Shown here: positions 15,664-34,426 of the stretch, in pieces
Numbering within the stretch: the first letter of the stretch is position 1
Layout: every line of letters begins with the position of its first letter
DNA from: an uncultured cyanobacterium
GTDB lineage: Bacteria; Cyanobacteriota; Cyanobacteriia; Cyanobacteriales; CAWCAG01
DNA: 64,000 nt
Assembly: GCA_963793425.1 (NCBI GenBank)
Contig: CAWCAG010000009.1
Span: 96,001-160,000 of the forward strand
Direction of reading: 5' to 3'
Translations under genes and position numbers: made by a program
Notes under the pieces: generated by a model
What the model was told of the DNA's origin: nothing
The model's database searches: none
What the model saw: only the letters and a program-made list of their open reading frames with translations

Positions 15664-15795
15664 TTATTCAGCCGGTGATGGTGCTTCTTCTTCTGTAGGA
15701 GATTCCACAGGTTCTTCACCAGCATCGTTACAAGCAGCAAGAGGTAGAATTGCAGATAGGATTAAAGCTAAACCGACGAGCTTTTTAAAGTTCAT
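15664..15795 (-). CDS. Small lipoprotein, 43 aa (below the ORF-track length cutoff)
   Basis: MNFKKLVGLALILSAILPLAACNDAGEEPVESPTEEEAPSPAE*; basic n-region, hydrophobic core, LAAC lipobox; AAGGA upstream of the ATG. Confidence 0.75.
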   Translation of the reverse strand: MNFKKLVGLALILSAILPLAACNDAGEEPVESPTEEEAPSPAE

Positions 15796-15987
15796 GTTTT
15801 TTCCTTACTATGGAGCTAATATTATAACTAAGCAACTCTAGCATGAAAGTTTTCTTCTTTCCTCTTTCTTGGGAAAGAAGCAAAGTAAGCCGTTTTTATA
15901 CTAGCAACTTTTTTGTTAAGCAATAGTTTGTTAGATGAATTTACCAAGAAAGATTTAACCTGGCCTTTACTAATTCTCTTCTTTTCC

Positions 15988-16878: not shown

Positions 16879-17087
16879 TGCACTTTCTAATTTTGAAATT
16901 TATTCTTGCCAATTTAAGAAATTCAGACTAGCGCGAAGAATATATGAATATGATTATCTGAAATTTTTGCGATCAAACGTTTTAAAATACGTATATTGCC
17001 ACACTTTATCTGCCTCTAATTTACAACAAGATTAAATAAGAATGTTACTATTGTCAGTGAAAAATAATTCAGATTTAATGCCTAACT

Positions 17088-18389
17088 ATGAAAGTTCTTT
17101 ATGATACATCATTACTTGGGGCTAGCACTGGGGCCTATGGTTTTAAATCAGGTTTATTCCGAGTAACAGAAACTCTAGCTTCTGAGTTGATGAATTTTCC
17201 CGAATGCGAACTTACTTTTGGTGCAGGTGTATCTTTAGAAATATGGAGTAACTCCCAGAGATATTTAGAGTCTCATTCTCTTTTTAAGGAAGTTCCTTTC
17301 GTTAGTAAAGATTCTATAATAAATGCCAGAAGAAAACTTTATAACTTAACTGAAAAATCTATTAATATTTCTCATAAGTTAGGCTGGCGTAGAACAAAAA
17401 AAATGCGCGAAAGCTTATTAAGTTTATTGGCATATAATTTCCAACCTCTTTCTATTCAAGATTTAAAAAACCAAGATATATATCACTCTCTATATCACGC
17501 TATTCCTCAAAGAGTCAAAACAGTAAGAAGCCTCACTAGTTTTTTGACGGTAAATGACATAATTCCCATTTTGTATCCTCATTTTTTTGGTCTAGATAAA
17601 AATTTTACTAAAGCCAAGAAAACTTATAACCTGAAAGCAAGTTTAGACAGCTTAGACAGAGATGATTGGCTAATTTGTATATCTCACTCGACAAAAAATG
17701 ACCTTTGTAACTACTTAGGCGACAAAATTGATCAGCAAAAAGTTTTTGTTACTCATTTAGCTGCTTCAGATTTATTTTATCCTTGTTTAAATGAGCAAAA
17801 ATTTGCGGCTATAAAACAAAGATATGGAATACCTAATGCACCTTATATCTTGAGTTTGAGTACCTTAGAACCTAGAAAAAATATTGAGCAAACTATTCGC
17901 TGTTTTGCGAAGCTAGTGCAACAGGAAAAAGTTCCAGACTTACATCTTGTTTTAGCCGGTAAAAAGGGCTGGAATTATGATAGTATTTTTAGCGAAATTT
18001 CTGATAACCCTCAAATAAAAGAGCGAGTTATTTGTACAAATTATGTAGCGGATGAAGATTTAGCAGCCCTTTATAGTAATGCTTTGGTATTCGTCTATCC
18101 TTCTTTTTATGAAGGCTTTGGTTTACCACCTTTAGAGGCTATGCAATGTGGCACTCCAGTAATTACTTCTAATACTTCTTCTTTACCAGAAGTTGTTGGT
18201 GAGGCAGGAATTATGGTTGATCCCCAAGATGAAGATGAACTTTGTCAGCAAATGTTGAAAGTTTATAATGATTCTTCATTGAGAAACTCTTTAGCCGTAA
18301 AAGCAAAGGAACGTGCTAAAAAGTTTAGTTGGTCAAAATGCGCCCAGGAAACTATTGAAGCTTATCAATATGCCTTGGCTAATCGCTAG
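17088..18389 (+). CDS. Glycosyltransferase family 4
   Basis: [28 protein letters not shown]. Confidence 0.92.
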
Positions 18390-19204
18390 TTGTCAATATC
18401 AAGCCGTTCTATAATAGTTTTAACTTCTGTTGGAGAAAGGTCATAAACCCTGGCAATTTGCTCTATAGTTAAACCCAGAGATAAGAGTCTAGTTATAGCT
18501 TGTTGACGTTCTTTTTCCGCTCGATCTGCTCGTTGGCGCTCAGACTCTGCTCGTTGACGCTCAGACTCTGCTCGTTGGCGCTCAGACTCTTCAGGAAGAG
18601 GATAAGGATTACCTTGTTCGTCATACCAGTATAACCATTCCCTTGTCCACACTGTATAAGTCCCTCTACTTCTACCAATTCCTAAGCCTATTTCTGGTAG
18701 CCAATAGGGTTCATTATTTGCTTGTAAGATGTATTCTCCCTCTTCCAAACGATACAACTCCAGAGGCTGATGCTTGTCTCTTTGCCAATGATTGGGGTTA
18801 TAAATCAGGTAGTAAACTACTCCTAAGTTGCGATACTTTTCTTTCTTCTGTTCGTACTCATCGTTATATTTCTTAGAAACCACTTCGATAGCAAGCAGAG
18901 GGGGAACCTGATTTTCTTCCCATAACACATAACTCAGTCTTCCTCTTTCTCCTTTGCGTCTAGTTACACCAACACTGAGGAAACCATCAGGTACTAATAC
19001 TGGTTGACGTTGGTTTTCCCAGAGATAGTAGATGCCCATATCTACTCCAAAAAACCAATCTTGACGTTCTCGCCAAATAAAAGCTAGGATAGTTAAAAGT
19101 AAGTTAGGAACTAGATTTTGTAGTTCATTATCCACAGGGGTATCATCAGAGCAAGGTAACTCTTCACTGGTGGGTAAACGCGAAAGCGGTTCAAATTGTA
19201 CCAT
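18386..19204 (-). CDS. Uma2-family endonuclease with C-terminal heptad repeats
   Basis: LPCSDDTPVDNELQ, VPDGFL, AIEVVS; (ESERQRA)x3 tail. Confidence 0.9.
   Translation of the reverse strand: MVQFEPLSRLPTSEELPCSDDTPVDNELQNLVPNLLLTILAFIWRERQDWFFGVDMGIYYLWENQRQPVLVPDGFLSVGVTRRKGERGRLSYVLWEENQVPPLLAIEVVSKKYNDEYEQKKEKYRNLGVVYYLIYNPNHWQRDKHQPLELYRLEEGEYILQANNEPYWLPEIGLGIGRSRGTYTVWTREWLYWYDEQGNPYPLPEESERQRAESERQRAESERQRADRAEKERQQAITRLLSLGLTIEQIARVYDLSPTEVKTIIERLDIDN
18528..18590. repeat. 3 x 21-bp in-frame tandem repeat inside the Uma2 gene
   Basis: GCTCGTTG(G/A)CGCTCAGACTCT at 18528, 18549 and 18570. Confidence 0.9.
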
Positions 19205-19256
19205 CTGTGGTTACTCCTTTGAGTTAGGGAGGTGTTCTAATTTATTAATAGTAAGC

Positions 19257-20471
19257 CTAATATTGTTCACTCACTGCTTGCCAAGAATATTCTGCTTGTA
19301 GCAACTCATATCCCTCTTTAGCTAAATTTCGTCCCAGGTTGGGATTAGACCAAAGTTGACTTACCGCAGCAACAATTTCTTCTACACTATCTCTAATCAG
19401 TAAATGTGTGCCATCTTCAGCTTTAATGCCTTCAGCCCCCTTACTTGTACTAACCACAGGACAGCCAGCAGCGAAAGCTTCCAGGATTTTCAGGCGCGTA
19501 CCTCCTCCTTCTAATAAAGGTACTACCATGACCCTAGCAGCAGCTAAATAGGGACGAATATCTTCCACCTTACCAGTAACAATTATACCTTCTTCTTTCT
19601 TGGCTATCTGTTTCATGTAAGCTGTGGGGTTGCGCCCGACTAAAAGTAAGCGACAATGGGGATAAATTTCTTGCAATCGGGGATAGATTTTTTCTACTAG
19701 CATCCTCATAGCAACAAGGTTAGGTTCGTGGGTATAGGAAGCTGTAAAAATCAGGGTTTGGGAGTTTGGCGACAACTCTGGGGGTATATGACATTGACCA
19801 AGGCGTACTGGGTCGTAGTATTCTGGATTAACACCATTAGAAACAACATGGGTATCAACTTCTTTTGTGGCTAACTTTTGCAGAAGAGAAGCATCTTCCT
19901 CGCTACAAACCCAAACTTGATCTGTTTGCTCAAAGAGATTCTGCTCTATAGTTTCTATATGTTTTAGCCAAGATTGAGAAACCTTTTTGTCCAGACTGGT
20001 TTGCATATCTTGACGCAAAAAAGTTTCGATATTATGAGCATCATAAATCACTTTGCAATCATGACGTTTAAATAAGCTTAAGTAACGGTGGAGCCACAAT
20101 TCTTCTAAGATGACGATTGAAGGTTTAAATTCAGCTAATATTTCCTTGATTTGTTTAACTACAACCTCTCCATATAACTGATTACTCCAGGGATGATGGG
20201 CAGGTTGCAACCACCACAACTTATCTTTGACTTTCCTAAAGAGCGATCGCCGCTTCGCAAGTTCCTCAAAATAATAGTTATGCCAAATCTCCACTCCTTC
20301 AGGAAATTTCCCCTCACCCTTTACTTTCTCAGAAACAATTGAAACAACGGCTACTGACCCCAGGGTTTTCATGATATTAATATTTTGCCAGTTGCGTAAA
20401 GCGACTCCACCCATAGGCGGATAGGGTAAATGCCTGGTTATAAACAGGGTAGAAATTGCTTTTTTATTCAC
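19257..20471 (-). CDS. Glycosyltransferase family 4
   Basis: PYPPMGG, DAHNIE, VPLLEGGGTRLKILEAFAAGCPVVST. Confidence 0.9.
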   Translation of the reverse strand: MNKKAISTLFITRHLPYPPMGGVALRNWQNINIMKTLGSVAVVSIVSEKVKGEGKFPEGVEIWHNYYFEELAKRRSLFRKVKDKLWWLQPAHHPWSNQLYGEVVVKQIKEILAEFKPSIVILEELWLHRYLSLFKRHDCKVIYDAHNIETFLRQDMQTSLDKKVSQSWLKHIETIEQNLFEQTDQVWVCSEEDASLLQKLATKEVDTHVVSNGVNPEYYDPVRLGQCHIPPELSPNSQTLIFTASYTHEPNLVAMRMLVEKIYPRLQEIYPHCRLLLVGRNPTAYMKQIAKKEEGIIVTGKVEDIRPYLAAARVMVVPLLEGGGTRLKILEAFAAGCPVVSTSKGAEGIKAEDGTHLLIRDSVEEIVAAVSQLWSNPNLGRNLAKEGYELLQAEYSWQAVSEQY

Positions 20472-20500
20472 TGAGAATTGCTTCTAATAAAAATAACAAA

Positions 20501-20531
20501 GGGCGGATTAGATTCTCAGCTAAACCCGCCC
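20501..20531 (-). terminator. GC-rich hairpin downstream of ilvB (terminator or REP-like)
   Basis: GGGCGGATTAG...CTAAACCCGCCC imperfect inverted repeat. Confidence 0.5.
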
Positions 20532-20567
20532 ACAAGTTTATATATCCCAATCTTCAGCTAAATACTG

Positions 20568-22481
20568 CTATAGTTTCGCGCCGCAATCAGGGCAGAATTT
20601 ATTGGTAGATGGATTTTTTACACCACAACTACCACAGTGAATTAATTCTGCTGCTTTTTCTAAGGGACTTTTTTCCGGCAATCCTACCATTTGAGCATTG
20701 TTTTTACCAGGGGGAATCATCGGGTAGCAGTTTTCGTCCCTGGTTACTTTGACATCCAGCAATACAGGGCCATCATGTGCCAGCATTGCTGCGATCGCCT
20801 CTTTTAAATGATCCCGTTCTTTTAATACCATACCTTTAACCCCAAAGGCTTTAGCAAGAAGTTCAAAGTCTGGCATTCCTGCTTGCATATTAGAAGAAGA
20901 ATAACGTTCACCAAAGAAATTTTGCTGCCATTGTCTCACCATACCTTGCCAGCCATTGTTGATAATCACTGTTTTAACGTTGATGCCATATTGAGCCAAA
21001 GTAGCCAATTCTTGCAAGTTCATTTGAAAGCTAGCATCACCACTAATACAAATCACTTCTTCTTCCGGCAAGGCAACTTTTGCTCCCATAGCAGCAGGTA
21101 AACCGTAACCCATTGTTCCTAAGCCAGCACTAGAAATCCAGCGTCTGGGGCCATTTTTGAGGAATTGGGCTGACCACATTTGATGTTGTCCAACATCAGT
21201 GGTGTAGTAAGCATCGGGGGCTTGAGTGGCAATTTCGACAATTACTTCTTGGGGAGACAAGCTATGACCACTGCGGGGTACAACTAAAGGGTAATCTCTA
21301 CGCCACCCCTCAATTTTATCTCGCCAGCCCTGAGTCCTTTCGGAGTTAGGAGAGATTTCTAACTCATCAACACGCTTGAGAATTTGTTGAAGGACTTTCC
21401 GCACATCACCAACAATCGGTACTTCCGGGGCGCGGTTTTTACCCACTTCCGCTGGATCAATATCAATATGAATTACTTTAGCCCTAGAAGCAAATTCATC
21501 TAACTTTCCTGTTACCCTGTCGTCAAATCTTGCGCCTACAGCGATTAACAGATCACATTCACTAACGGCAAAGTTAGCATAGGCTGTACCGTGCATCCCT
21601 AGCATACTCACGGCCAGGGGATTGTGTTCATCAAAGGCTCCCAAACCCATTAGAGTAGTGGTGACAGGTATTTGGAAATGTTCTGCTAACTGTTTCAATT
21701 CCCCATGGGCGCTAGCAGAAATTGCTCCTCCCCCGACATAAAGTAAAGGACGGTGAGAACGTTCAATTAATTTAATAGCTTGATTGATTTGCCGAGGATT
21801 ACCTTTAACCGTCGGGCGATAGCCAGATAACTTTACAGTACCTGGGTCTACAGGAACATAATTAAATTCTTCTAGCCCTACATCTTTAGGAACATCAATT
21901 AATACTGGTCCCGGACGACCTGTACTAGCAATATAAAAAGCTTCTGCGACTACCCTCGCCATATCTTGAGGGCGACGTACTACATAGGAATTTTTAACTA
22001 TAGGAAGAGTGATACCAAAAATATCAGTTTCTTGAAAAGCATCTGTACCAATTGCCCCAGTCGCTACTTGTCCTGTAACCACTACCATGGGGATAGAGTC
22101 CATATGGGCAGTAGCTATCCCTGTAACCAGGTTAGTTGCGCCGGGGCCAGAAGTAGCGAAACAAACCCCAACTTTGCCTGTGGCGCGGGCATAACCATCA
22201 GCAGCATGGGATGCTCCTTGTTCATGGCGAACTAAAATATGTTGGAGGTGGCCTTTTTCTTCTGCTCGATATAACTCATCATAAATAGGTAAAATGGCTC
22301 CACCGGGGTAGCCGAAAATGTGTTTGACCCCATGACGAACAAGGCTGTCAATTAAGGCAAATGAACCAGTTGCACGGCTAGGCGCAACTAAAGGAGGTTT
22401 AGCTTGGGAAATAGCAGTTAAAGAAACCACGGTGATACCTTTTCTGGTTAGATAATTGTTTATCTTAAATTTTGTTGCCAA
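20568..22481 (-). CDS. ilvB: Acetolactate synthase large subunit with C-terminal zinc ribbon (true start probably a GTG near 22430)
   Basis: [31 protein letters not shown]...NN TPP motif; C-terminal CxxC...CxxC. Confidence 0.95.
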
Positions 22482-22660
22482 ATATGCAACCTATGGGTCA
22501 AAAATTTGATATTAATTAATGTTTTGATTTTAGGCGACTAGATGTAGAGATGTAAACTCTGCGGTCAATTTGTAATTGACCAGATTACTAGCCAAGGTCT
22601 TAGAACTAAAACATCTAGCTAAAAATAAGGTTTTTCCTCTATCTCCGGGATGATTTGTTT

Positions 22661-23320
22661 TTAAGCGCTTTTTAAGCTTTGTTGTTCTTTCTTTTCTAAA
22701 GGAGGACGTAAACACAAATAAGCTAAAGCCCCGATTAGAGGGAGTAAGCTAACAGCCCAAAAAATCCAGTTACTCTCAATACCACGTCTAGCTAAATCAT
22801 CCTTCAAAAGAGCAGGCAACACCAAACCAAGTAAACAAAAATCTAAACTCATGACGTTGATGAAACGACTGGTTTGCCACTGTTGCAGAAAATCTGACCA
22901 ATCACCTTGAGATAAACCATATATTAGCAAGGTTGCTGCTGCTAAAGTTAAGCCTAATCCTAACCAACGGGAATCTTGTAGTTGTAAAAACCAGTTTTTC
23001 TCTCCCGGAAATTGAGGATTTGCTTGACGCAATGCCAAGTAGGGCAGTATTGCAAATGCACCTACCCCAAAGGAAGCGGTTACAAAAGGCCAAGCAGGTA
23101 TTTTTTGTCCCCTACCATCAATAAATAATATACAACCATAAATCAGGGGCCAAATACCCATGAGGTTAAATAAAGCAATAATCAAAGGATTAATTCGGTC
23201 CCATTCTCCTGTAGAAAGTTTAGTAATTAATTCAAAGGTATCTGCTTGTTGAGGAGGGGCAAAAATAAAGGCATAGATCACAAATCCTAGCCAAAGTAGT
23301 CCGAAGCCAATTTTTTTCAT
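22661..23320 (-). CDS. Conserved multi-pass membrane protein (DUF2834-like)
   Basis: Several TM helices; FNLMGIWP, PYLALR, FINVMSLDF; start taken at MKKIGF rather than the upstream GTG. Confidence 0.7.
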   Translation of the reverse strand: MKKIGFGLLWLGFVIYAFIFAPPQQADTFELITKLSTGEWDRINPLIIALFNLMGIWPLIYGCILFIDGRGQKIPAWPFVTASFGVGAFAILPYLALRQANPQFPGEKNWFLQLQDSRWLGLGLTLAAATLLIYGLSQGDWSDFLQQWQTSRFINVMSLDFCLLGLVLPALLKDDLARRGIESNWIFWAVSLLPLIGALAYLCLRPPLEKKEQQSLKSA

Positions 23321-23462
23321 AGGAAGCAGCGCTAAGTAATGAGCAATGAGTTTAAGCTGTGGAAGAAATAACCACTTCTTCACATTGAGAATTATTTTAT
23401 CGGGGTTTTGGTTTGTGTTGTTTTAAGGATATTGAAAAGAAATCTACATTCAATCATGTTTT

Positions 23463-23546
23463 CTATAATCTTGACCAATCATCTTCCAAAGTCGCAACTC
23501 GCACTTCGAGATGTTGAGAACGATTATCCAGTTGCTGGGAAGTCAT
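23463..23546 (-). pseudogene. Probable N-terminal remnant of a small coiled-coil protein gene
   Basis: MTSQQLDNRSQHLEVRVATLEDDWSRL*; resembles LExRVAxLE starts of small cyanobacterial proteins but stops after 27 aa. Confidence 0.3.
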
Positions 23547-23588
23547 AAAAGCTTAGTAGGTGAATGTTGTAGTCACATTTTAGCAACC

Positions 23589-23915
23589 TTAAGCAAGTTC
23601 AATACTTTTTGCTACTTTCTTTTCTAGAAGTTCAACCAATTCTGGCTGCATATATTTATATTTATCTGCAATACCCAAAACTACGATTCTTTTGTCCTTC
23701 AACAATGTATTGAAACGTTTAGTTATTTTTTCTTTGTGAGTATTTTCCATGACAAAAACTACATCTGCCCATTCAATTAAATCACCACTAATTGGTGTTT
23801 CCGAATCGCTGTTTGTGCCAGCACTTATTGATTCAATTCCTTCATAATTAGAAAAAACTTCTTCTGCTGTGGGACTTCGCCATCTATTTTTGCTACAGAT
23901 AAAGAGTAATTTCAT
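23589..23915 (-). CDS. Low-molecular-weight protein tyrosine phosphatase-like protein
   Basis: P-loop LFICSKNRWRSPTAE (CX5RS), SAGT, WADVVFVME. Confidence 0.88.
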   Translation of the reverse strand: MKLLFICSKNRWRSPTAEEVFSNYEGIESISAGTNSDSETPISGDLIEWADVVFVMENTHKEKITKRFNTLLKDKRIVVLGIADKYKYMQPELVELLEKKVAKSIELA

Positions 23916-23992
23916 TTCTACTTTACTTTGAAATTTAAGTAATTGATGAAATTAAAAGACTGCGATCGCTTGCTTTGAAAGTTTACAAATGT

Positions 23993-24053
23993 GGTGCGTT
24001 CCCAGAAATTTATCGGTGGATGACTAGGAGTTAGATTGGGGAACACACCCTAC
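23993..24053 (-). repeat. GTAG-type REP-like palindrome
   Basis: Minus strand GTAGGGTGTGTTCCC...GGGAACGCACC. Confidence 0.6.
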
Positions 24054-24081
24054 AAGATATGTGATCGCACTATAAAATAAA

Positions 24082-25431
24082 TCAATCATCGCTTTTTTTG
24101 TTGACAATAGGTACAGAAATTCTATCTCTTGCTACACAAACATTATCTTTGATGATATAGCACTCTACAAAATGCTCACCCTTGAAATCAGATGTTTCCT
24201 TAATAGACGCACGTCCATCAAAAATTGTCCCCCTAATACAATTTCTTCTAAATGCCTCATCTCCAACATTACAGACTTTCCATTTTATGGAAAATGGTTC
24301 TGGGCAAGTATTTTTATTAATTGAGAATCGTAGTTTTTTATTGGTTAATAGAGGTAGCTTCAATCGCAGCATATCTCTTAATAATCGGGGCATAAAACCA
24401 TCTTGAGTAACCTTGCAATCAATCCTTAGCTCATATTTATCAAGAATAGAATGTCTATTTTCGATAAATTCTTCTGTTTCCTCATAGGCAATACTATCTT
24501 GATGGGCAGCTAGATTGATTGAGGCTGTAATATCATCAGAATTGCTAAGTAAGAAACGTTTTTTCCCAAAATGACGTTGCCAATACTCACAAGCTTTTGG
24601 TGGCCGAGTATTCTCATTTATCGCTTTCTCAGCAGAATTTATCAACCCTGTTAGTCGATCCAGAAGATAATTTTTATTTGTTTTACCGTAATTATCTAAA
24701 AGGTTTTCACCACGAGGAGTTGTAGGTCTGTAGCAAGCAAAACCCCGATAAAGGACTGAGTGTATGTTTTTGAGAGTTTCATACAGCGCGATGTCATCTC
24801 TATTGTCAAATACTGCATATTGAGCAGCCAGTATGCTAAACACCAAGCCACATGGAAGCTCTTTTTTCCTATAGTCCTTCCATGCTTTCAAGTATCTAAC
24901 AAGACGTTTGAGCTGTCCATTAGAATCAGCTTTATCGTTAAACCAGTCAATGAATTCTCTTGGATCACTCTCGATCCAACCCTTTGTTTTATGAGCAAGA
25001 TAAGGCGAGTCAGATTTCTTTGTGTAATAAAGTGGTAGATCAATATGATATTGACCTGTATAGATTAAGCGAACACATGGATTTTTGTCTATTGGTGTTT
25101 CTTTCGTCTGCCCATCTACAGCATTGTAGATCCAACGATGGAAGGTGCTAACAGATTCACTAGGCTCACTATCAACTTGTAAATATATTCCATCATCAAT
25201 ATCAAACTCACCATCTAGAGGCTCAATAATTGCATTCATCATAAATGAGCCTTGACCATGAAACTTTGGGGTATAACCTTTCTTTTCTTCCCGAAAGTAT
25301 CTGCGAATCCTATCTCTTACAGCATTGCGTGATGTTCGAAGAGTTTTTTTGTGAGATGAACTCAAGGCTATAGTATTGTTGAAATCTAGAAAAGATTGGT
25401 GTAAATCAGCCATATTTCTTAAGTCTGTCAC
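24082..25431 (-). CDS. CBASS cGAS/DncV-like nucleotidyltransferase (CD-NTase) with C-terminal AGS-C domain (alternative ATG at 25413)
   Basis: QGSF...EFDIDDGIY active-site motif, KNPCVRL..YHIDLPLY, SDPREF, LVRYLKAWKD; C-terminal WKVCNVGDEA...RGTI...ETSDFKGEHFVECYIIKD. Confidence 0.9.
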   Translation of the reverse strand: MTDLRNMADLHQSFLDFNNTIALSSSHKKTLRTSRNAVRDRIRRYFREEKKGYTPKFHGQGSFMMNAIIEPLDGEFDIDDGIYLQVDSEPSESVSTFHRWIYNAVDGQTKETPIDKNPCVRLIYTGQYHIDLPLYYTKKSDSPYLAHKTKGWIESDPREFIDWFNDKADSNGQLKRLVRYLKAWKDYRKKELPCGLVFSILAAQYAVFDNRDDIALYETLKNIHSVLYRGFACYRPTTPRGENLLDNYGKTNKNYLLDRLTGLINSAEKAINENTRPPKACEYWQRHFGKKRFLLSNSDDITASINLAAHQDSIAYEETEEFIENRHSILDKYELRIDCKVTQDGFMPRLLRDMLRLKLPLLTNKKLRFSINKNTCPEPFSIKWKVCNVGDEAFRRNCIRGTIFDGRASIKETSDFKGEHFVECYIIKDNVCVARDRISVPIVNKKSDD

Positions 25432-26465
25432 CTTAAAATATAATGCTTCTTTTCTTGGAAAAAGCTAGTTACTTCACTCTTAACTCCCCAAATATCTCCT
25501 TGGTCGCTTCCTTTTTGAGATAAGAGGTTAAGTGCTTCATCAGAGGCGTTATCCATACTAATTATTGACCACTGTTCAGTTGATAGAATAGCGCTAGGTA
25601 TGCGTACATAATCAAATGGGGTATTAGTATGTGAAGATAGAGTTTGAATAAAATACTCTGTAGAGTATGCTTGACCTTCTGAAAAAACAGAAAATATATC
25701 TTTATTCCAATCAACAAATGAACGATTTTGCTTCTTTATGGTCAATCTCCCAGGAGACGATTCGAGAGAAGCAATGGACAATACCTTAAGGTTTTGAAAC
25801 TGCTTATCCTGGCCAACAAAGTACCTGAGAGCCTCAACAACTCCAATTAGGGTAGGATTATTCGCGTAGACACCTCCATCAATGAACTGTCTATTTCTAT
25901 AATTTGAAATTGAAACTATGGGTAAGTAGGTTGGGGCAGCACTTGTTGCTAAAGCTACATCTACATACTTTGTCCTGTTATCTCTTTTAAGATTTCCTTC
26001 TTTATGGTCAAACTTGAAGATAAATGGTCTGCCATCATTGAGTGAAAATGTAGGAATACATAGAAGAGAGTATGATTCTTCTATAAAAGAATCATTAAAA
26101 ACTTTGTTGAGTTCTTTCTTTAGCGCTTCATTTGAGTGTTTACCATTCCAGAAAGTCTGCTTTAGAAAAGCAATAGCTTTTCTTTGTTTAGGAAAGATTG
26201 CGGCTCCACACTCTTGATATAGGTTGCTTATAAGACGCACTGGTAACTTCAAGGAGATTGCCAGTGCGATAAGACCACCTGTGGAAGTTCCACAAATGAG
26301 ATCAAAGTAATCAACTATGGGGCAATCAAATCTTTTCTCAAAGTTCTCTAAAATCCGTGAAGAGTAGAGTCCTTTAATACCACCTCCATCAATAGACAAA
26401 ACTTTGAAGGTTTTAGACTCTGACTCAGAGCAAGCGGTAGATGACCGATCTTTATTATTGTTCAT
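25428..26465 (-). CDS. CBASS patatin-like phospholipase effector (CapV/CapE-like)
   Basis: LSIDGGGIKG, GTSTG nucleophile motif, SAAPTY, DGGVYANNP; its TGA overlaps the GTG of the CD-NTase. Confidence 0.9.
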   Translation of the reverse strand: MNNNKDRSSTACSESESKTFKVLSIDGGGIKGLYSSRILENFEKRFDCPIVDYFDLICGTSTGGLIALAISLKLPVRLISNLYQECGAAIFPKQRKAIAFLKQTFWNGKHSNEALKKELNKVFNDSFIEESYSLLCIPTFSLNDGRPFIFKFDHKEGNLKRDNRTKYVDVALATSAAPTYLPIVSISNYRNRQFIDGGVYANNPTLIGVVEALRYFVGQDKQFQNLKVLSIASLESSPGRLTIKKQNRSFVDWNKDIFSVFSEGQAYSTEYFIQTLSSHTNTPFDYVRIPSAILSTEQWSIISMDNASDEALNLLSQKGSDQGDIWGVKSEVTSFFQEKKHYILR

Positions 26466-26753
26466 CGAGCATCATAGAACAGTATGACTAAAAATTGGAA
26501 CACTCAAGTGCTGTATTTAGTACTCCGACGATTCTAACTAATTTTTGTGGTCTTGCCCTATATGGGGAGGGTGGATAACCGCAAAAGTATCTGGTATAAA
26601 AACCTTCAGCCAAACCTCATCTCACAGGATTATGTTGTCTCAGATCACATAAATATTCTTCTTCTAAGCTGAACATAGAAGAAGTAATTTTTTTTATAAT
26701 AGACTCACAGCCAGTTAGTAGTTTTTTAAGGAAAAGCAAAGACCGGAGCCTAT

Positions 26754-27620
26754 ATGTTTCTCTCCACTAATTTATTCATTGACAACCTAATCCAACAATT
26801 GCTCGTAGGTTATCGCCGTACCTATGGTGGTTGGAAATCTGAGTATGGAGAGATTTTGGCTTGGGCTGCTGGTATGGCTTTGGAAAACATTGCCAACAGT
26901 GATGCCCTCTATCATAATGTCGAACATACTGTTTTTGTTACCCTGGTAGGACAAGAAATTCTGCGCGGTAAGCATATTAAAGAAGGTGGAGTAACTAACG
27001 AGGATTGGTTGCATTTCCTCATCTCCTTACAGTGCCACGATATTGGTTATGTCAGAGGAGTTTGTAGCACTGACCAGCCCAAGGAAAGGTTATATGCTAC
27101 TGGGGTAGGAGATATGAAAGTTTCTGTCCCCCCAGGTTCAACAGATGCAAGTATGGCTCCCTATCATGTAGATCGTGGTAAGCTTTTTGTCCAAGAGCGT
27201 TTTGGACATCATAATCTCATCGATTCCGAAACTCTCAAAAACAATATTGAACTAACTCGTTTCCCTGTTCCTAACGACGATGACCATAATAGTACCAGCA
27301 GTTTCCCTGGGTTAGTCAGGGCGGCAGATTTAATTGGACAATTAAGTGATCCCCGCTACTTACAAAAGATTCCTGCTTTGTATTACGAATTTGAAGAAAT
27401 TGGTACAAACAAAGCGTTAAACTACCGTAACCCCGGAGATTTGCGTTCCAATTATCCTAGTTTTTATTGGCAAGCGGTTTATCCCTATCTGCCCACTGCT
27501 TTAGCTTTCTTAGATTTAACTCAATCTGGTAAACAAATTACTGCTAATCTCTATGCGAATGTCTTTATGATTGAGCATGAGAAAGAAAGAAAGCGTCTTG
27601 CTGGTGTGGTTGCAGCTTAG
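26754..27620 (+). CDS. HD-domain metal-dependent phosphohydrolase (Npun_R2479-like family)
   Basis: SDALYHNVEHT, CHDIGY, PYHVDR, RAADLIGQLSDPRY. Confidence 0.85.
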   Translation: MFLSTNLFIDNLIQQLLVGYRRTYGGWKSEYGEILAWAAGMALENIANSDALYHNVEHTVFVTLVGQEILRGKHIKEGGVTNEDWLHFLISLQCHDIGYVRGVCSTDQPKERLYATGVGDMKVSVPPGSTDASMAPYHVDRGKLFVQERFGHHNLIDSETLKNNIELTRFPVPNDDDHNSTSSFPGLVRAADLIGQLSDPRYLQKIPALYYEFEEIGTNKALNYRNPGDLRSNYPSFYWQAVYPYLPTALAFLDLTQSGKQITANLYANVFMIEHEKERKRLAGVVAA

Positions 27621-27762
27621 TCTGAGCAAAAGTTTATTGGCATGAGCCTTCTCGTCACAATAATTCACTCATTAATTCAAGCAATTAGTATCAAGTTTTA
27701 TGAAAAGAACTTGACTTAAAAGCTACTATATTTATCTGTAGCTTGAGCATAAGTGAATTTCT

Positions 27763-29127
27763 ATGACAAACAATGCAGATAAACAGACTGTTCATAAAGT
27801 TGTTGTTGTTGGTGGTGGTTTTGGAGGACTTTATGCCGCCAAAGCCTTGGGCAACACTGCCAATGTGGAAGTAACCTTAATTGATAAACGGAACTTCCAT
27901 CTTTTTCAGCCTTTACTTTACCAAGTAGCCACAGGTTCCCTTTCTCCAGCAGATATCTCCTCCCCCCTCAGACATGTACTTAGTGATAAAAAAAATACTA
28001 AAGTACTCTTAGATGAAGTCATAGACGTTGATCCTGTTAACCAAATTGTTACTTGCAAAGGGCAAGAACTAAGTTACGATACCTTAGTTGCTGCAACAGG
28101 AGTTAGCCATCATTATTTTGGTAATGAACATTGGCAAGAAACTGCCCCTGGGTTGAAAACTGTGGAAGATGCCCTTTTAATGCGTCGCCGTATTTTTATG
28201 GCTTTTGAGGCAGCAGAAAAAGAAACTGACCCAGAAAAGCGTCGGGCTTGGTTAAACTTCGTGGTAGTAGGAGGTGGCCCCACAGGAGTAGAATTAGCAG
28301 GAGCGATCGCAGAATTAGCTAACTCTACCCTCAAAAAAGATTTCCGTACTATAGATACAACAGAAGCAAGTGTCATTCTCTTAGAAGGGATGGATCGGGT
28401 TTTACCCCCCTATGATCCAGACTTGTCAGCCAAAGCAGAAATAGCCCTTAAAAAGTTGGGAGTGACAGTGAGAACAAATAGTTTAGTCACCCAAATTGAA
28501 GGTAACACCGTTACAGTACGCCAAACCAAAATTAATCAAGTAGAAAAAATTACCTCCCAAACCGTACTTTGGGCTGCTGGGGTGAAAGCTTCAGCTATGG
28601 GCAAAACCTTGGCACACCGAACCGGAGTAGAATTAGATCGGGCGGGTAGAGTGATGGTGAAGCCAGATTTGAGTATCGAAAACTATCCGAACATTTTTGT
28701 GATTGGGGATTTAGCTAACTTCGCCCATCAAGGAGAAAGACCTTTACCAGGAATTGCCCCCGTAGCAATGCAGGAAGGAGACTATATTGCTTCTTTAATT
28801 AAGCGTCAACTTAAAGGGGAAACCTTACCAGCCTTTCAATATATTGATCGTGGCAACTTAGCGGTTATTGGTGAAAATGCTGCGGTGGTAGATTTAGGCT
28901 TCGTTAAGTTTTCCGGCTTCCTCGCTTGGCTAACCTGGGTATTCGTCCACATTTACTACCTCATCGAATTTGATAACAAATTAGTGGTTATGGTGCAATG
29001 GGCATGGAACTATTTAACCCGTGGTAGAGGGGCGCGTTTGATTACGGGAGACGATTCTTTAGGACAACCCCAGATTAATTTAGAGGGGGATAGTTATCTG
29101 CCTCAACCTAGGGAAGCAAAGGTGTGA
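27763..29127 (+). CDS. Type II NADH dehydrogenase (NDH-2)
   Basis: VVVGGGFGG, FQPLLYQVATG, VVGGGPTGVELAG, WAAGV, IGD, APVAMQEG. Confidence 0.93.
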   Translation: MTNNADKQTVHKVVVVGGGFGGLYAAKALGNTANVEVTLIDKRNFHLFQPLLYQVATGSLSPADISSPLRHVLSDKKNTKVLLDEVIDVDPVNQIVTCKGQELSYDTLVAATGVSHHYFGNEHWQETAPGLKTVEDALLMRRRIFMAFEAAEKETDPEKRRAWLNFVVVGGGPTGVELAGAIAELANSTLKKDFRTIDTTEASVILLEGMDRVLPPYDPDLSAKAEIALKKLGVTVRTNSLVTQIEGNTVTVRQTKINQVEKITSQTVLWAAGVKASAMGKTLAHRTGVELDRAGRVMVKPDLSIENYPNIFVIGDLANFAHQGERPLPGIAPVAMQEGDYIASLIKRQLKGETLPAFQYIDRGNLAVIGENAAVVDLGFVKFSGFLAWLTWVFVHIYYLIEFDNKLVVMVQWAWNYLTRGRGARLITGDDSLGQPQINLEGDSYLPQPREAKV

Positions 29128-29285
29128 TACTAAATCCTGCCCTTGTTGCATGATTTATCTGTTGGGGTAGGGGGGTAGGGAGTAGGGTTTGCGAACTTCT
29201 CTCCCTTACCCTTTACTCGTCAATTAAAAGTTGACAGAGTACAAGAGAAGAGATTTTCAACCACTATCCCCTAAATCCCTTATTT

Positions 29286-29294
29286 TGCTATAAT
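29286..29294 (+). promoter_or_regulatory. Extended -10 promoter of tRNA-Cys
   Basis: TGCTATAAT 20 nt upstream of the tRNA 5' end. Confidence 0.6.
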
Positions 29295-29313
29295 TAAAAG
29301 CTGTTAGTAACAG

Positions 29314-29384
29314 GGCGGCATAGCCAAGCGGTAAGGCCGAGGATTGCAAATCCTTTATCCCCAGTTCAAATCTGGGTGCCGCCT
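29314..29384 (+). tRNA. trnC: tRNA-Cys (GCA), CCA not encoded
   Basis: Acceptor stem GGCGGCA/TGCCGCC, anticodon arm AGGA-TTGCAAA-TCCT region, T-loop GTTCAAATC, discriminator U. Confidence 0.97.
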
Positions 29385-29404
29385 TTAGGGAATTACGGTT
29401 TGAC

Positions 29405-29424
29405 AGCCTAACGATGATTAGGCT
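29405..29424. terminator. Hairpin between tRNA-Cys and convergent purM
   Basis: AGCCTAA-N6-TTAGGCT. Confidence 0.45.
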
Positions 29425-29499
29425 ACTTATTAGAGAATTTGATATTCTGGCGGGTATTTTATTTCTGTGCCAGTCCCTTATTCAATAAATTAGATTTTT

Positions 29500-30519
29500 T
29501 CAAATCAACACCTCACCTTTGCCAGAAACTACTTTGCCAATTTGATTGGCTTTTATATTCTGGGAATTAAACCAATCAACAGTAGACTTGGCTTCTGGTT
29601 GAGGAACAATTAAGACAAAACCAATACCCATATTGAAAGTATTAAACATATCAGCAGGACTCACTTGTCCGGTTTCTGCTAGCCAATCAAAAATAGGTAG
29701 AACTTTCCAACTATCCACATCAAGCTGTACAGATTGACCCTCATTTAAACAGCGAGGTAAGTTTTCTGGTAAACCGCCTCCGGTTATGTGAGCCATGCCG
29801 CGAATATTCATACCTGCTTTCAGGGCTGCAACTAACGGCTTGACGTAGATTTGAGTTGGCTTCAGCAGCACTTCTCCTAAACTTTTCCCTCCTAATTCTT
29901 GGGGACAAACATCCCACGTCAAACCTTTTGTTGCCACAATTTTTCTCACTAAACTGAAGCCATTACTATGAACTCCTTGGCTAGCCAAACCAATAACAAC
30001 ATCTCCTCGTTCAATTTGGTCACCCGTTAGAAGTTCTTCTTTTTCCACAATTCCGACACAAAAGCCTGCTAAATCATATTCTCCTAATTGATAAAAACCA
30101 GGCATCTCTGCGGTTTCCCCACCCAACAAAGCACAACCACTTTGTCGGCAACCTTGGGCAATACCCGCCACCACCTCAGTTAACTGTTTTGGTTCCAGCT
30201 TTCCTGTAGCAACATAGTCCAAGAAAAATAACGGCTCTGCCCCAGAAGTTAAAATATCGTTGACACACATAGCTACAAGGTCTATACCTACCGTGTCATG
30301 GCGATTAAGCTCGTGAGCTAATTTCAGCTTTGTTCCGACACCATCTGTTCCTGAAACTAGGACGGGTTGTTTATAGCCTGGGGGAATTTCAAAGCAACCG
30401 CCGAATCCTCCTAATCCCCCCAAAACTCCCTGTCTATAAGTACTTTCAACCAAGCTTTTGATTTGTCCCACAAAAGCTCGCCCTGCTTCAATATCTACAC
30501 CTGCTTGAAGATAATCCAT
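29500..30519 (-). CDS. purM: Phosphoribosylformylglycinamidine cyclo-ligase
   Basis: [43 protein letters not shown]. Confidence 0.97.
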
Positions 30520-30852
30520 GTTCCTTGTTGAGATCAGTTAGGGAACAATTATATGAGTTGTGGGTGAGAGATTATGATTCCTAATCATTAAATTGCCAAG
30601 TTCCAACAGTTAAATTTATCTTTGTGGGGCAATCTTATTAGATTTAGTTAATTTCTTAATGAAGAAAAGTAAAGTTTTGAAGTCTGTAATCTCCCATCAT
30701 AGCTTTATTTCATCTTCATTTACCTCATTTCCAGTAAGTATTAATTCGTAGATTTAGCTGATTCCGAAATAAAAAACTTCGTGTTAGTCTGTTCCAGGTT
30801 GAACAAGTACAAATTAACAAAGTAGTTTTCGAACCCATTTACTGAGGGGAAT

Positions 30853-31482
30853 ATGAACATAAAAACTTGGACTAGCTTTTCGGCTGTATTACTAACAACT
30901 GTTTCTGGCGCGGCAGTACCTGTTTTAGCCGAAACAGTACAAGAAACAACCAGGGCAGTTAATCCAGAAGTATTAGCCCCCGCAGAAGCTGATGAGCTTG
31001 TCTTAGCTGAAATAGTTGAAGAAACAGCTAAGGGCGTAAATTCAGAAGCTGTAGCTTCGGCAGAGTTGCCCCCCACAGAAACTGATGAACTTCTAGAAAT
31101 TGCCCTAGAAGTTGCTCCAGAAGCAGTTTTACCTCCACTTCCTTCCGAGATGCCTGAAATTCCGGAGGTAGACGTAGAAAAAGTTATCTCGCGGGCTACG
31201 GGCATGGCTTCCTGGTATGGTCCCGGATTTCATGGCCGTCGTACAGCTAACGGTGAAAGATTTAATCAAAATGCTATGACTGCGGCCCATCGCAGCTTAC
31301 CTTTTAACACCAGAGTGAGAGTTACTAACAAAAACAACGGTCGTTCTCTTGTTTTACGGATTAATGATCGTGGCCCTTTTATTCGCGGCAGAATTATTGA
31401 TGTTTCCGTTGGTGCAGCTAAGCAGTTAGGTATGTATAGCTCTGGAGTCGCCCCAGTTAAGGTAGAAGTTTTAGACGACTAA
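30853..31482 (+). CDS. rlpA: Septal ring lytic transglycosylase RlpA-family protein
   Basis: GMASWYGPGFHGRRTANGE, TAAHRSLPF, RINDRGPF. Confidence 0.9.
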   Translation: MNIKTWTSFSAVLLTTVSGAAVPVLAETVQETTRAVNPEVLAPAEADELVLAEIVEETAKGVNSEAVASAELPPTETDELLEIALEVAPEAVLPPLPSEMPEIPEVDVEKVISRATGMASWYGPGFHGRRTANGERFNQNAMTAAHRSLPFNTRVRVTNKNNGRSLVLRINDRGPFIRGRIIDVSVGAAKQLGMYSSGVAPVKVEVLDD

Positions 31483-31556
31483 TTTCAATTGCGCTCCTTT
31501 GTCTTGTGGTAATTCCCTCTAATATTTGATTAGGATCAAAAACTGAAGGGAATTAG

Positions 31557-33095
31557 ATGCGGATCTTAAATACAATTGCTGGTTTAAACACCTATAAAAA
31601 AACTCTGCCACCAGGAAAGAAAATTGCTTTAGTTGCGACAATGGGAGCGTTGCATCCTGGCCACACAAGCTTGATTAAATTGGCTAGGGAAGACGGGGAG
31701 TTAGTAATTGTTAGCATTTTTATTAACCCTTTGCAATTTTCACCTACAGAAGATTTGCAACGTTATCCGCAAACTTTTGATGCAGACTGTCAATTATGCG
31801 AACAATTAGGGGTTGATGTAGTTTTTGCTCCCACTCCAACAGCGATGGGTTTGGAGCAGTTAAAAAACCCCAAGTCCCATAGCCAGATGACTATGGTAGT
31901 TCCCCCAGCAGAGATGATTTCTGTTTTGTGTGGCTTATCTAGAGCGAAACATTTTCAAGGGGTAGCTACTATAGTTACTAAGTTACTTAATATCGTAGAG
32001 CCGACAGTGGCCTTTTTTGGTCAAAAAGATGCTCAACAACTGGCGATTATTAAACGCTTAGTTAAAGATTTAAACTTATCTGTAGAAATTAAAAGCTGTC
32101 CTATTATCCGGGAAGAATCAGGACTAGCTTATAGTTCTCGCAATACTTATTTAACTCCTACTCAGCAGCAAAAAGCTGCTATTTTGTACCGTAGTTTAGA
32201 GAAGGCTCAACAAGCTTTTCTACAAGGAGAAAATAGTCGAGATCAATTGCTTTCTTTAGTGACAGAACAAATCAATTCTGTACCTGAAGTAGCCATAGAG
32301 TATGTAGAATTAGTTGATCCCATTACTTTAGAGACTTTAGGAAAGATAGTTGAAACAGGTTTACTAGCTATTGCTGCCAAGGTTGGTAATACTCGTTTAA
32401 TTGATAATATTCAACTACGCCAACCCCAGCCAGTAATCGCCATTGATGGCCCTGCGGGGGCAGGAAAATCAACGGTTGCTCGTTTAGTAGCTAATAAATT
32501 AGGTTTCCTCTTCCTTGATACCGGAGCAATGTATAGAGCAGTAACTTGGTCTGTTTTACAAAGGGGGATCGATGTTAATGATGAAGTTGGAATCGCAGAA
32601 TTAGTTAGTCAATCTGTCATCAAGCTTACTCCTGCCGATAGACCCGAAGATCCCATCAAGGTAGAAATTGATAGCCAGGATGTTACTCATTCAATTCGCC
32701 AGCCTCATATCACAGCAAATGTCTCTACCATCGCTGCTCAACCTGCTGTACGCCAGGAATTGCTTAAGCAACAACAAGAATGGGGAAAACAGGGCAGGAT
32801 CGTTGCTGAAGGAAGAGATATTGGCACTCATGTTTTTCCAAATGCAGAACTAAAAATTTTCCTCACCGCTTCAGTACGCCAAAGGGCGCTACGCCGCCAA
32901 CAAGATTTACAGAACCAAGGACAAACCAATGTTAGCTTAGAAGAACTAGAGCAAGCTATTCAGAAGCGGGATCATCAAGATGCTAACCGTCGAGTTGCTC
33001 CTTTGCGTAAAGCCCCTGGGGCGGTTGAAATCAACACCGATAATTTGAGCATCAGAGAAGTCACCCAAAGCATTATCTCCTTAACTAAATATTAG
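31557..33095 (+). CDS. panC/cmk: Bifunctional pantoate-beta-alanine ligase / cytidylate kinase
   Basis: TMGALHPGH, FGQKDAQQ, SSRN, RLIDN; then IAIDGPAGAGKST, DTGAMYRA, EGRDIG. Confidence 0.95.
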   Translation: MRILNTIAGLNTYKKTLPPGKKIALVATMGALHPGHTSLIKLAREDGELVIVSIFINPLQFSPTEDLQRYPQTFDADCQLCEQLGVDVVFAPTPTAMGLEQLKNPKSHSQMTMVVPPAEMISVLCGLSRAKHFQGVATIVTKLLNIVEPTVAFFGQKDAQQLAIIKRLVKDLNLSVEIKSCPIIREESGLAYSSRNTYLTPTQQQKAAILYRSLEKAQQAFLQGENSRDQLLSLVTEQINSVPEVAIEYVELVDPITLETLGKIVETGLLAIAAKVGNTRLIDNIQLRQPQPVIAIDGPAGAGKSTVARLVANKLGFLFLDTGAMYRAVTWSVLQRGIDVNDEVGIAELVSQSVIKLTPADRPEDPIKVEIDSQDVTHSIRQPHITANVSTIAAQPAVRQELLKQQQEWGKQGRIVAEGRDIGTHVFPNAELKIFLTASVRQRALRRQQDLQNQGQTNVSLEELEQAIQKRDHQDANRRVAPLRKAPGAVEINTDNLSIREVTQSIISLTKY

Positions 33096-33402
33096 AAAAA
33101 TAAAAATATTTGTCCCTTCCCTTTGACAGAGGAGAAACTTGAGTTAGAATTAAACTCGAAACAGCATTTTTGACGATTTTCAGGGCAAATTTATACGTTT
33201 GCCAGAAAAATCCGTTTTTTTCCGGATTTTCTTTTATCTTGGTGCTAATGTGCAATGACATCTTCGGCTTAGAAGGGTACATCTTAAGCTTATTGAAGTA
33301 GGTTATGAATTATTGATGGTTGGTTATCGCAATATGTGAGCAGCAAACATCTACCGCGTAATTTACTACCCTAGAACTGATGAGGAGTGAAAGGAAGTTT
33401 CA

Positions 33403-34356
33403 GTGGTAAGAGTGAATTCAAGGGTTATTAGACGCAGAAAGAAATTTCTCACTATTTTGGCAGTTAGTAGTTTTGCTTTAGGTATTTTTATTCCCCTCCA
33501 GCGGGCTACTCATCAAGGTGAAAGCACAGGCAGTATTTTTACTTCTTTAACTAATATTTTTAGTTCTCGTGAAGCTAAACCTAAAAATGTAGCAGCCCCA
33601 TCAAATCAGCTTTTTGGAGAAATGGCTGAAGGTCTTTATAGTAAACAGGAAGCAGAATATATAAAAAATATTACCTTTACAATTCCTGAGAGATTTAAAG
33701 GTAAAACCATCAACGATGTTCCTGTTCCCCAAGAGCGAAAAGTTGTCGCTTTAACCTTTGATGATGGCCCTTGGGAAGAAACAACCAATGATACTCTTTT
33801 TATTTTAGACAAATATGGTATTAAGGCGACTTTCTTTGTAGTAGGGCAGTACATACAAGCCTATCCAGAAATAATCAAGAAAGTTGTTCGCCATGGCCAT
33901 GCCCTTGGTAATCATACTTGGAGTCATGGTTATCATGGTTTCAGCGAAGCAGCTGCAGCAAAGGAATTAGATAACACTGCTGCTGCAATTGAAAAGTTAA
34001 CTGGTGCAAAAACCTCTCTATTCCGTCCCCCAGGAGGAATTTTAACGAATGGATTAGTGTCCTATGCCCACAAAAAGGGTTATGTTAATGTGATGTGGTC
34101 AGCAGATTCCCATGACTATCGTTCATCTAGCGCTGTAATTACTAAAAAGGTTCTTAGCCAAACTAAGCCTGGTGGGGTGATCTTACTCCATGACGGTGGA
34201 GGGAATCGCCAAAATACAGTCAATGCTTTGCCAAAAATTATTGAGTCACTGATAGAGCAGGGTTACAGTTTTGTGACTCTTCCAGAATTATTGGAAATAT
34301 CAGATCAAGCAAGTAAAGAGGCTGAAAAGCCTAAGCCAAAAGCTGTACAGCAATAG
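33403..34356 (+). CDS. Polysaccharide deacetylase (NodB/CE4), N-terminally anchored
   Basis: LTFDDGP, NHTWSH, FRPPGG, ILLHDGGG. Confidence 0.92.
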   Translation: MVRVNSRVIRRRKKFLTILAVSSFALGIFIPLQRATHQGESTGSIFTSLTNIFSSREAKPKNVAAPSNQLFGEMAEGLYSKQEAEYIKNITFTIPERFKGKTINDVPVPQERKVVALTFDDGPWEETTNDTLFILDKYGIKATFFVVGQYIQAYPEIIKKVVRHGHALGNHTWSHGYHGFSEAAAAKELDNTAAAIEKLTGAKTSLFRPPGGILTNGLVSYAHKKGYVNVMWSADSHDYRSSSAVITKKVLSQTKPGGVILLHDGGGNRQNTVNALPKIIESLIEQGYSFVTLPELLEISDQASKEAEKPKPKAVQQ

Positions 34357-34384
34357 TACAAAATTATCTCACATAAGTGATTAG

Positions 34385-34414
34385 TGTAGAGACAGACTAG
34401 ATGATATCTCTACA
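34385..34414. repeat. Degenerate GTAGAGAC-type palindrome between convergent genes
   Basis: TGTAGAGAC...ATCTCTACA. Confidence 0.55.
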
Positions 34415-34426
34415 TTTTTTAGGAAA

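Follow-up and report, generated by a model that had tools for sequence, protein, structure and literature searches.

Type I operons of the cyclic-oligonucleotide-based anti-phage signalling system (CBASS) in which a cGAS/DncV-like nucleotidyltransferase (CD-NTase) is fused to an AGS-C domain are the closest described counterparts of the locus considered here. As far as the available text of the source goes, this fusion occurs in about 40% of Type I CBASS operons, and nearly always in clades B and H, while AGS-C itself is a C-terminal immunoglobulin (Ig)-like domain of about 18 kDa that is also carried by Pycsar cyclases (bioRxiv 10.1101/2023.05.21.541620). The operons of this kind described by Richmond-Buccola et al., with the classification of Millman 2020, have the same two-gene layout as the locus studied here and no accessory genes; in the portion of that work available, the operons that were tested are gammaproteobacterial, with none from the subfamily considered here, and a CdnB-CapV pair is not mentioned. 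Our locus lies in a stretch of 64,000 nucleotides from an uncultured cyanobacterium (assembly GCA_963793425.1, contig CAWCAG010000009.1, positions 96,001 to 160,000), which is called the window below, and it comprises a gene for a patatin-family lipase and a gene for a CD-NTase with a C-terminal AGS-C domain (Table 1).

The best explanation of the locus as a whole, to which we give a probability of roughly 85%, is that it is a working anti-phage operon of the Type I CBASS kind, acquired horizontally. By analogy with its family, the clade-B-like CD-NTase would be inactive until phage infection; the activated enzyme would then make a cyclic dinucleotide, most likely 3'3'-cyclic GMP-AMP (3'3'-cGAMP), and this nucleotide would bind and activate the patatin phospholipase, which would degrade the cell membrane and abort the infection, as in the established mechanism of CapV-type effectors. 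The AGS-C domain, on a flexible linker of about 20 residues, would be an accessory regulatory or sensing module outside the catalytic core. The operon would have been gained horizontally into a variable slot that, in a genome of the same genus, is occupied by a restriction-modification system.

Table 1. Features of the CBASS locus and of the corresponding slot in the same-genus genome G001. Positions are those of the window, except where locus L019 is named (L019 is G001:C2:458000-472000, and its stretch 7221-10290 corresponds to window 23938-26582); aa, amino acids
Feature	Position	Strand	Basis or remark
capV-like patatin-family phospholipase effector gene	25428..26465	-	345 aa; list of open reading frames, motifs, Pfam/NCBIfam/PADLOC, PDB alignments
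CD-NTase-AGS-C gene, longest open reading frame	24082..25431	-	449 aa from GTG; stop codon within the coordinates
Cyclase (cGAS/DncV-like nucleotidyltransferase) domain, residues 7-297	24541..25413	-	Pfam, NCBIfam, PDB 7ljo_A, model
Linker, residues 298-318	24478..24540	-	Predicted disordered; length and sequence vary among homologs
AGS-C domain, residues 319-445, Ig-like beta sandwich	24097..24477	-	Pfam AGS_C, alignments A1 and A2, AlphaFold2 model, fold match 9ard
Variable segment with the CBASS operon, 2645 bp	23938..26582	.	blastn against same-genus genome G001 (locus L019)
Low-molecular-weight-phosphatase-like gene, 108 aa, left flank	23589..23915	-	Pfam LMWPc 1.2e-6; 90% identical at the corresponding place in CBASS-less G001
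Npun_R2479-family HD-domain metalloprotein gene, right flank, divergent	26754..27620	+	NCBIfam NF045583, 485.7 bits (cut-off 400); 97% identical in G001
C5 cytosine methylase in the G001 slot	L019 7721-8794		Pfam 2.6e-68; PADLOC Type II methyltransferase 7.5e-88
Putative restriction enzyme, 499 aa, overlapping the methylase	L019 8791-10290		Weak AlwI-type match, 3.5e-4, below the cut-off
112-aa open reading frame of no known family, G001 slot	L019 7221-7559		

On the minus strand, the list of open reading frames (ORFs) places the lipase gene first and the cyclase gene second in the order of transcription. The lipase matches Pfam Patatin (E = 1.5e-25), the NCBIfam model NF041079 CBASS_lipase, which is described as a "CBASS cGAMP-activated phospholipase" (314.3 bits, cut-off 200), and the PADLOC phospholipase effector PDLC00758 (5.2e-108). 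Its motifs are DGGG at residues 26-29 (with the GGG oxyanion loop at 27-29), GTSTG at 59-63 (with the nucleophile Ser61), and DGG at 196-198 (with Asp196). In a sequence search of the PDB, the nearest solved lipases were 9wn0, 9kh6, and 9kh7 (about 3e-43), one among them named as cGAMP-activated; CapV of Vibrio cholerae (8zr9) matched at 8.1e-31 and a patatin lipase activated by cyclic UMP-AMP (cUMP-AMP; 9iom) at 6.5e-17. In the same search, the motifs of Ser61 and Asp196 both aligned to solved CBASS patatins. The protein is classed on these grounds as a CapV-type lipase, above the equivalog cut-off and with its Ser-Asp dyad intact, and its activation by a cyclic nucleotide is predicted.

The nucleotidyltransferase part of the second protein, whose residues are numbered here from the GTG codon at 25431, matches Pfam DncV-like_NTFase (2.4e-21) and SMODS (1.1e-16), the NCBIfam model "CBASS cGAMP synthase" (cGAS; 252 bits, cut-off 150), and PADLOC PDLC00774 (5.4e-123), so that the family scores of lipase and cyclase alike are far outside chance. 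It contains GQGS at 59-62, DIDDG at 77-81, HIDLP at 129-133 (with D131 as the third acidic residue), and WQRHFG at 284-289; the predicted active-site residues are G61-S62, D77, D79, and D131, as aligned to BfCdnB of Bacteroides fragilis. In a full-length AlphaFold model, the block-mean predicted local distance difference test (pLDDT) of this domain is mostly 86-98. A preliminary description of the locus, made from the letters of the sequence, had read the patatin motifs DGGG, GTSTG, and DGG and the CD-NTase motifs QGS..DIDDG as intact, and so they proved to be, all of them being present and, for lipase and cyclase alike, in alignment with the active sites of solved enzymes; the Pfam checks (SMODS, AGS_C, and Patatin) and the PADLOC check that it had proposed were run, and every one gave a match far over the cut-off.

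The assignment to Type I also depends on the neighbouring genes. Searches of the flanking ORFs with Pfam, NCBIfam, and PADLOC found neither Cap2/Cap3 nor HORMA/TRIP13 nor any other CBASS accessory protein; these ORFs have no PADLOC match, and their Pfam and NCBIfam matches are unrelated to CBASS. With PADLOC, a further 44 ORFs of at least 100 aa in the window gave no match to a CBASS accessory protein and no other complete defence system. Over the whole genome (5.28 Mb in nine contigs, 98.6% complete), there is one AGS_C match (149.2 bits) and one SMODS match, both at this locus. The Type I layout that had been proposed, with a patatin effector, a CD-NTase-AGS-C protein, and no Cap2/Cap3 or HORMA/TRIP13 genes, is thus upheld by the curated models, by the adjacency of the two genes, and by the lack of accessory genes in the flanks and in the other 44 ORFs, and the locus is to be annotated as a solitary two-gene Type I CBASS, that is, effector and cyclase only. 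Published work describes this layout as a common one, and existing NCBI family models name the two proteins correctly.

The Vibrio cholerae DncV-CapV pair follows the same logic, in which a cGAMP synthase is coupled to a cGAMP-activated patatin lipase, and both of its members are recognizable in the proteins studied here (8.1e-31 for CapV and 8.6e-16 for DncV, the latter with PDB 4u0n and others). The Vibrio operon, however, is of Type II, with Cap2 and Cap3, and DncV belongs to clade A and has no AGS-C domain. Our locus lacks accessory genes in the ORFs searched, and its cyclase stands much nearer to BfCdnB, a clade B enzyme, which is by far its nearest solved relative in the PDB search (7ljo_A, E = 1.4e-59 over residues 7-301), the next solved cyclase standing at 1e-17. 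It is by this nearest solved structure only that the cyclase is provisionally placed in clade B.

What is known of BfCdnB bears directly on the likely signal. According to the available part of the source, 7LJO is BfCdnB of Bacteroides fragilis, a clade B04 enzyme that prefers GTP, makes mainly 3'3'-cGAMP, and has Asp238 as a specificity residue (PMC10442399). The GS, DxD, and HIDLP motifs of the two enzymes align; the differences are that the solved chain of BfCdnB, of 341 residues, matches the cyclase part only and that Asp238 is replaced by a glutamate, Glu242, next to an alignment gap that makes the equivalence insecure. Since the nearest solved cyclase makes 3'3'-cGAMP and the nearest solved lipases are linked to cGAMP, 3'3'-cGAMP is, by analogy with these characterised relatives and with modest confidence, the most likely signal. 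A different possibility, plausible although the less probable one, is that the operon has this architecture and serves defence but uses another signal, such as cyclic di-AMP (c-di-AMP), cUMP-AMP, or some other cyclic di- or trinucleotide, with the lipase tuned to match. A patatin effector activated by cUMP-AMP does exist (9iom), but the nearest solved lipases, of which one is named as cGAMP-activated, surpass it by 26 orders of magnitude in E-value; the glutamate beside the gap at the position of Asp238 would allow for a changed specificity, but the enzyme in which Asp238 was defined, mainly a 3'3'-cGAMP producer, is closer than any other solved cyclase, and both NCBIfam equivalog models of the cGAMP pair are passed. 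A precedent for another signal comes from DancE, that is, EaCdnB of Escherichia albertii with its effector Cap15: in the available text, this cyclase, which belongs to a Type I CBASS and has an AGS_C domain, makes mainly c-di-AMP, at about 75% of its yield (10.64898/2026.10.06.757031).

The boundary between the two genes depends on the choice of start codon for the cyclase. The preliminary description had spoken of two overlapping genes with intact motifs; the two genes do lie where it had placed them and their motifs are intact, but the overlap is probably an artefact of the chosen start codon. The 4-base overlap holds only if the GTG at 25431 is taken as the start of the cyclase. In an alignment of the protein with 32 homologs (A1), 29 of these have their first residue level with Met7 or further on; the remaining three have N-terminal extensions of their own, which come from the ORF extension procedure. 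P0004, a homolog that is 86% identical, has the N-terminus MADLHQSF, and the PDB and PADLOC alignments both start at residue 7. The true start is therefore probably the ATG at 25413, which would give a protein of 443 aa and a 14-base intergenic gap with no overlap.

The C-terminal region had been described as an AGS-C-type domain of about 130 aa, reached by a linker after the nucleotidyltransferase ends at about WQRHFG, and the limits found here (Table 1) agree with that description. When the C-terminus was tested against the AGS-C family, it matched Pfam AGS_C (PF18134) at residues 318-442 with E = 9.2e-43 and 145.8 bits (cut-off 26.7), over profile positions 2-128 of 129. The full-length AlphaFold model, built from a 33-sequence alignment, has a mean pLDDT of 87.8; in it, both domains are well folded, and the linker between them is disordered, with a pLDDT below 50. 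The linker is gap-rich in A1, and its identity among homologs is 5-50%, except in the nearest relative, P0004, where it is 83%. Modelled alone with AlphaFold2 (25 sequences), the AGS-C region is a beta sandwich with a pLDDT of 83.5. Its top fold match is the AGS-C domain of EcPycC, PDB 9ard (Foldseek E = 2.2e-3; VIA-align Z 9.4, root-mean-square deviation 3.0, 103 residues, 20% identity), and the generic Ig and fibronectin type III domains that come next in VIA-align have Z values of at most 8.1, which is a modest margin. Against PDB sequences, the domain alone gave no match at E up to 10, so that 9ard was found by fold comparison only and the likeness to EcPycC, although the best structural one, is distant; moreover, in EcPycC the domain belongs to a mononucleotide (Pycsar) cyclase and not to a CD-NTase. 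This match accords with the earlier remark that AGS-C is also found on Pycsar cyclases.

The AGS-C domain is more conserved than the enzyme to which it is attached. In the 33 sequences of A1, the invariant columns are concentrated in AGS-C, and only G61, S62, and W152 are invariant within the cyclase part. The residues of AGS-C that are invariant in both A1 and A2 are E320, E324, G345, L361, W384, K385, N388, R400, G401, I403, E412, G418, H420, E423, C424, A434, and I442. In 14 distant homologs from Bacteroidota, Firmicutes, Campylobacterota, and other groups, all of which Pfam recognizes as AGS_C-bearing cyclases of the SMODS or DncV-like families, identity is 15-24% in the cyclase and 45-54% in AGS-C. 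Because the AGS-C core is so much more conserved than the attached cyclase, this pattern argues for a domain that would engage something conserved, such as a host guard factor, a nucleic acid, a small ligand, or the oligomer interface of the enzyme itself, rather than variable phage proteins. A narrower version of this idea is that AGS-C forms a conserved pocket for one universal cue (a host guard protein, a nucleic acid, or a small molecule) and is not an antibody-like receptor of phage proteins; the invariant polar set in A1 (E320, E324, K385, N388, R400, E412, H420, E423, and C424) can be cited for it, and we put it forward as a speculation that is rather unlikely to be right in this form.

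DancE is again instructive, within the limits of the available text. It is activated by double-stranded DNA (dsDNA) and repressed by DnaK in vitro, and its AGS_C domain is essential, since mutation of N372, G403, or H405 abolishes defence; the mode of action of AGS_C is left open by the authors (10.64898/2026.10.06.757031). Like DancE, the protein studied here combines a cyclase of a Type I CBASS with AGS_C, and the conserved N, G, and H of DancE have putative counterparts in N388, G418, and H420, which are invariant in the 33 sequences, the equivalence being one of pattern only. The distance from N to G, which is 30 in this protein and greater in homologs without its two-residue gap, is compatible with the spacing in DancE. 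The differences are that the effector of DancE is Cap15, with two transmembrane segments, that its product is c-di-AMP, and that activation by dsDNA, repression by DnaK, and a tetramer were shown for DancE only. To see AGS-C as a sensing or regulatory module with the trigger and the signal unsettled, as the preliminary description did, is in line with what could be consulted of this literature (10.1101/2023.05.21.541620; 10.64898/2026.10.06.757031).

A comparison of relatives indicates how firmly AGS-C belongs to the system. A homolog search with the cyclase gave 591 matches at E up to 1e-10, and the best 120 of these are largely cyanobacterial where named and fall into two sizes, about 420-450 aa for those with AGS_C and about 290-340 aa for those that lack it. 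At 19 of 39 related loci, a lipase that is 52-63% identical lies directly upstream of the cyclase; 13 of these pairs have AGS-C and 6 do not, and the flanks searched around the latter (up to 5 kb on each side) contain no separate AGS-C match. At the other 20 loci, no match to the lipase was obtained (E up to 1e-5). In the sister operons without AGS-C, the cyclases are 54-63% identical and the lipase is the same, so AGS-C would not be part of the catalytic core. A FastTree phylogeny was built from 124 cyclase domains, of which 76 come from proteins with AGS-C and 48 from proteins that lack it, as scored by Pfam and with one protein of less than 285 aa excluded. On this tree, at least six changes between presence and absence of AGS-C are needed, or at least four when P0076, which is probably truncated, and L040, which has a long branch, are left out; these counts assume neither a root nor a direction of change. 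Given these repeated changes among lipase-cyclase pairs, AGS-C is, on the evidence of the tree, an exchangeable accessory to the core pair.

Three cyclases without AGS-C (P0088, P0092, and P0097) are nested among AGS-C-bearing ones and end at or near the AGS-C junction, P0088 with ...RFPFESE, at the onset of the conserved EEFIE motif of AGS-C. Each looks like a recent truncation rather than a member of an old domain-less lineage.

The site of the operon was compared with that in the same-genus genome G001. There the flanks are 85-95% identical in DNA, and the proteins of ilvB, a membrane protein, the phosphatase-like gene, the HD gene, and NDH-2 are 86-97% identical; the further ORF flanking our operon likewise encodes a membrane protein, and the flanks, which consist of ordinary, conserved genes of a housekeeping kind, match no defence model. 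In place of the segment that holds the operon, as judged by blastn, ORFs, Pfam, and PADLOC, G001 has 3.4 kb of other content, with a methylase and a putative restriction enzyme (Table 1). As far as this one genome comparison goes, the presence of different defence systems at the same place suggests a small hotspot for such genes. The segment has a GC content of 0.369 against 0.399 for the genome (11th percentile of tiles) and contains one HIP1 site. A search of 23850-26760 found only chance-like repeats of 12-22 nt, none of which brackets the segment, and Rfam had no match in 22400-27800 at E up to 1. A tRNA-Cys (GCA) gene at 29313-29385 (+), between NDH-2 and purM and the sole tRNA in a scan of 15000-35000, was considered as an attachment site and rejected, since it is about 2.7 kb from the edge of the segment.

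Neither of the two genes next to the segment is counted as part of the system. The 108-aa phosphatase-like gene was rejected as a third CBASS component because in G001 it stands beside different cargo and because it is absent from all 39 related loci. The HD-domain gene is 97% identical in G001, which has no CBASS, and is likewise absent from the 39 loci. The left flank of G001 also contains insertions in comparison with the window: a gene for a 710-aa GAF protein, about 680 bp with a 70-aa ORF, and a GNAT acetyltransferase gene.

The distribution of the pair also bears on whether it serves defence at all. The pair might instead serve host physiology, as in a controlled remodelling of membranes or in cell death under stress, and there is a precedent in that Vibrio cholerae DncV-CapV was tied first to physiology (chemotaxis and antifolate sensitivity), its defence role being shown only later. 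Moreover, the available text on DancE reports that both DncV and DancE are inhibited by folates in vitro (10.64898/2026.10.06.757031). The occurrence of the pair is patchy, however: it has matches in 3 of 40 relatives, all of them weak (24-29% identity), in neither of two same-family relatives, and not in G001, whose slot holds the restriction-modification system. Flank genes of this window stand beside related CBASS in none of the 39 loci, which means that the pairs sit at different sites, and a 61%-identical pair without AGS-C is on a plasmid of Gloeocapsa sp. PCC 7428. Patchy occurrence, the exchange of content in the slot, and scattered sites together form the pattern of accessory defence cargo and not that of a housekeeping pathway, and we consider a physiological role highly improbable.

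We regard it as similarly improbable that the operon has fallen silent or into decay and has lost its expression or activity. A scan of 23400-26900 found four promoter-like sites against 11.8 in shuffled sequences; no sigma-70-like match precedes the lipase gene, and the cyclase gene is not followed by a convincing terminator. Such a scan, based on an E. coli-type consensus, says little for a cyanobacterium and is uninformative here. Decayed relatives do exist, but at our locus neither reading frame is shortened, the catalytic residues and those invariant in the family are all present, and the structure models are confident. The decayed relatives are both from Hormoscilla: at L038 (4096-5890), lipase and cyclase each match in two pieces, which suggests frameshifts, and at L039 (5001-6044), only cyclase residues 89-442 are found and there is no lipase match, as in a decayed copy.

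Several points weigh against the explanation favoured here, that of a functional and horizontally acquired Type I CBASS operon. The activity, the product, and the phage trigger of the operon are what we infer, and a literature search gave no experiment on this operon or on the operons of relatives that are more than 50% identical. The assignment to clade B is that of the nearest solved structure, BfCdnB, and of nothing else; the residue that corresponds to Asp238 is Glu, beside a gap, and is Gln in at least one homolog in A1; and DancE, to go by the available text, is an AGS-C-bearing clade B enzyme with c-di-AMP as its main product, which means that clade membership does not fix the product. 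As for acquisition, the slot comparison involves a single same-genus genome, the two more distant relatives (G002 and G005) sharing only a homolog of the HD gene, with no synteny, and being uninformative on the slot; the deviation in GC is mild and too weak alone to indicate foreign origin; and there are no flanking repeats, integrase, or adjacent tRNA to mark an insertion mechanism. Finally, the cyclase tree is a FastTree phylogeny with local support values only.

Other genes of the window were also considered. The ORF at 46085-48661 (-), of 858 aa, had a PADLOC match as a Pycsar cyclase (PycC, 2.8e-25) and was rejected as such because Pfam gives it a GAF-GAF-PAS architecture with a class III adenylate/guanylate cyclase; these domains mark it as a signalling protein of a kind usual in cyanobacteria. 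Matches to the PADLOC candidate family PDC-S03 lie at 4362-5009 (-) and 18386-19204 (-), the former being a Uma2-family putative restriction endonuclease (Pfam 6.4e-30), and Uma2 is very abundant in cyanobacteria. A dynamin/GTPase-like protein of 641 aa at 61444-63369 (+), with Pfam MMR_HSR1 and Dynamin_N, has a weak PADLOC match to LeoA/LeoBC (4.2e-15).

Taken alone, the locus is of little weight, being one more annotated Type I CBASS in a cyanobacterial genome. The slot between the phosphatase-like and HD genes could, however, be mined for defence cargo in related strains, and the cyanobacterial CapV-CdnB subfamily, whose members occur with and without AGS-C, would provide a ready comparison set for the role of this domain.

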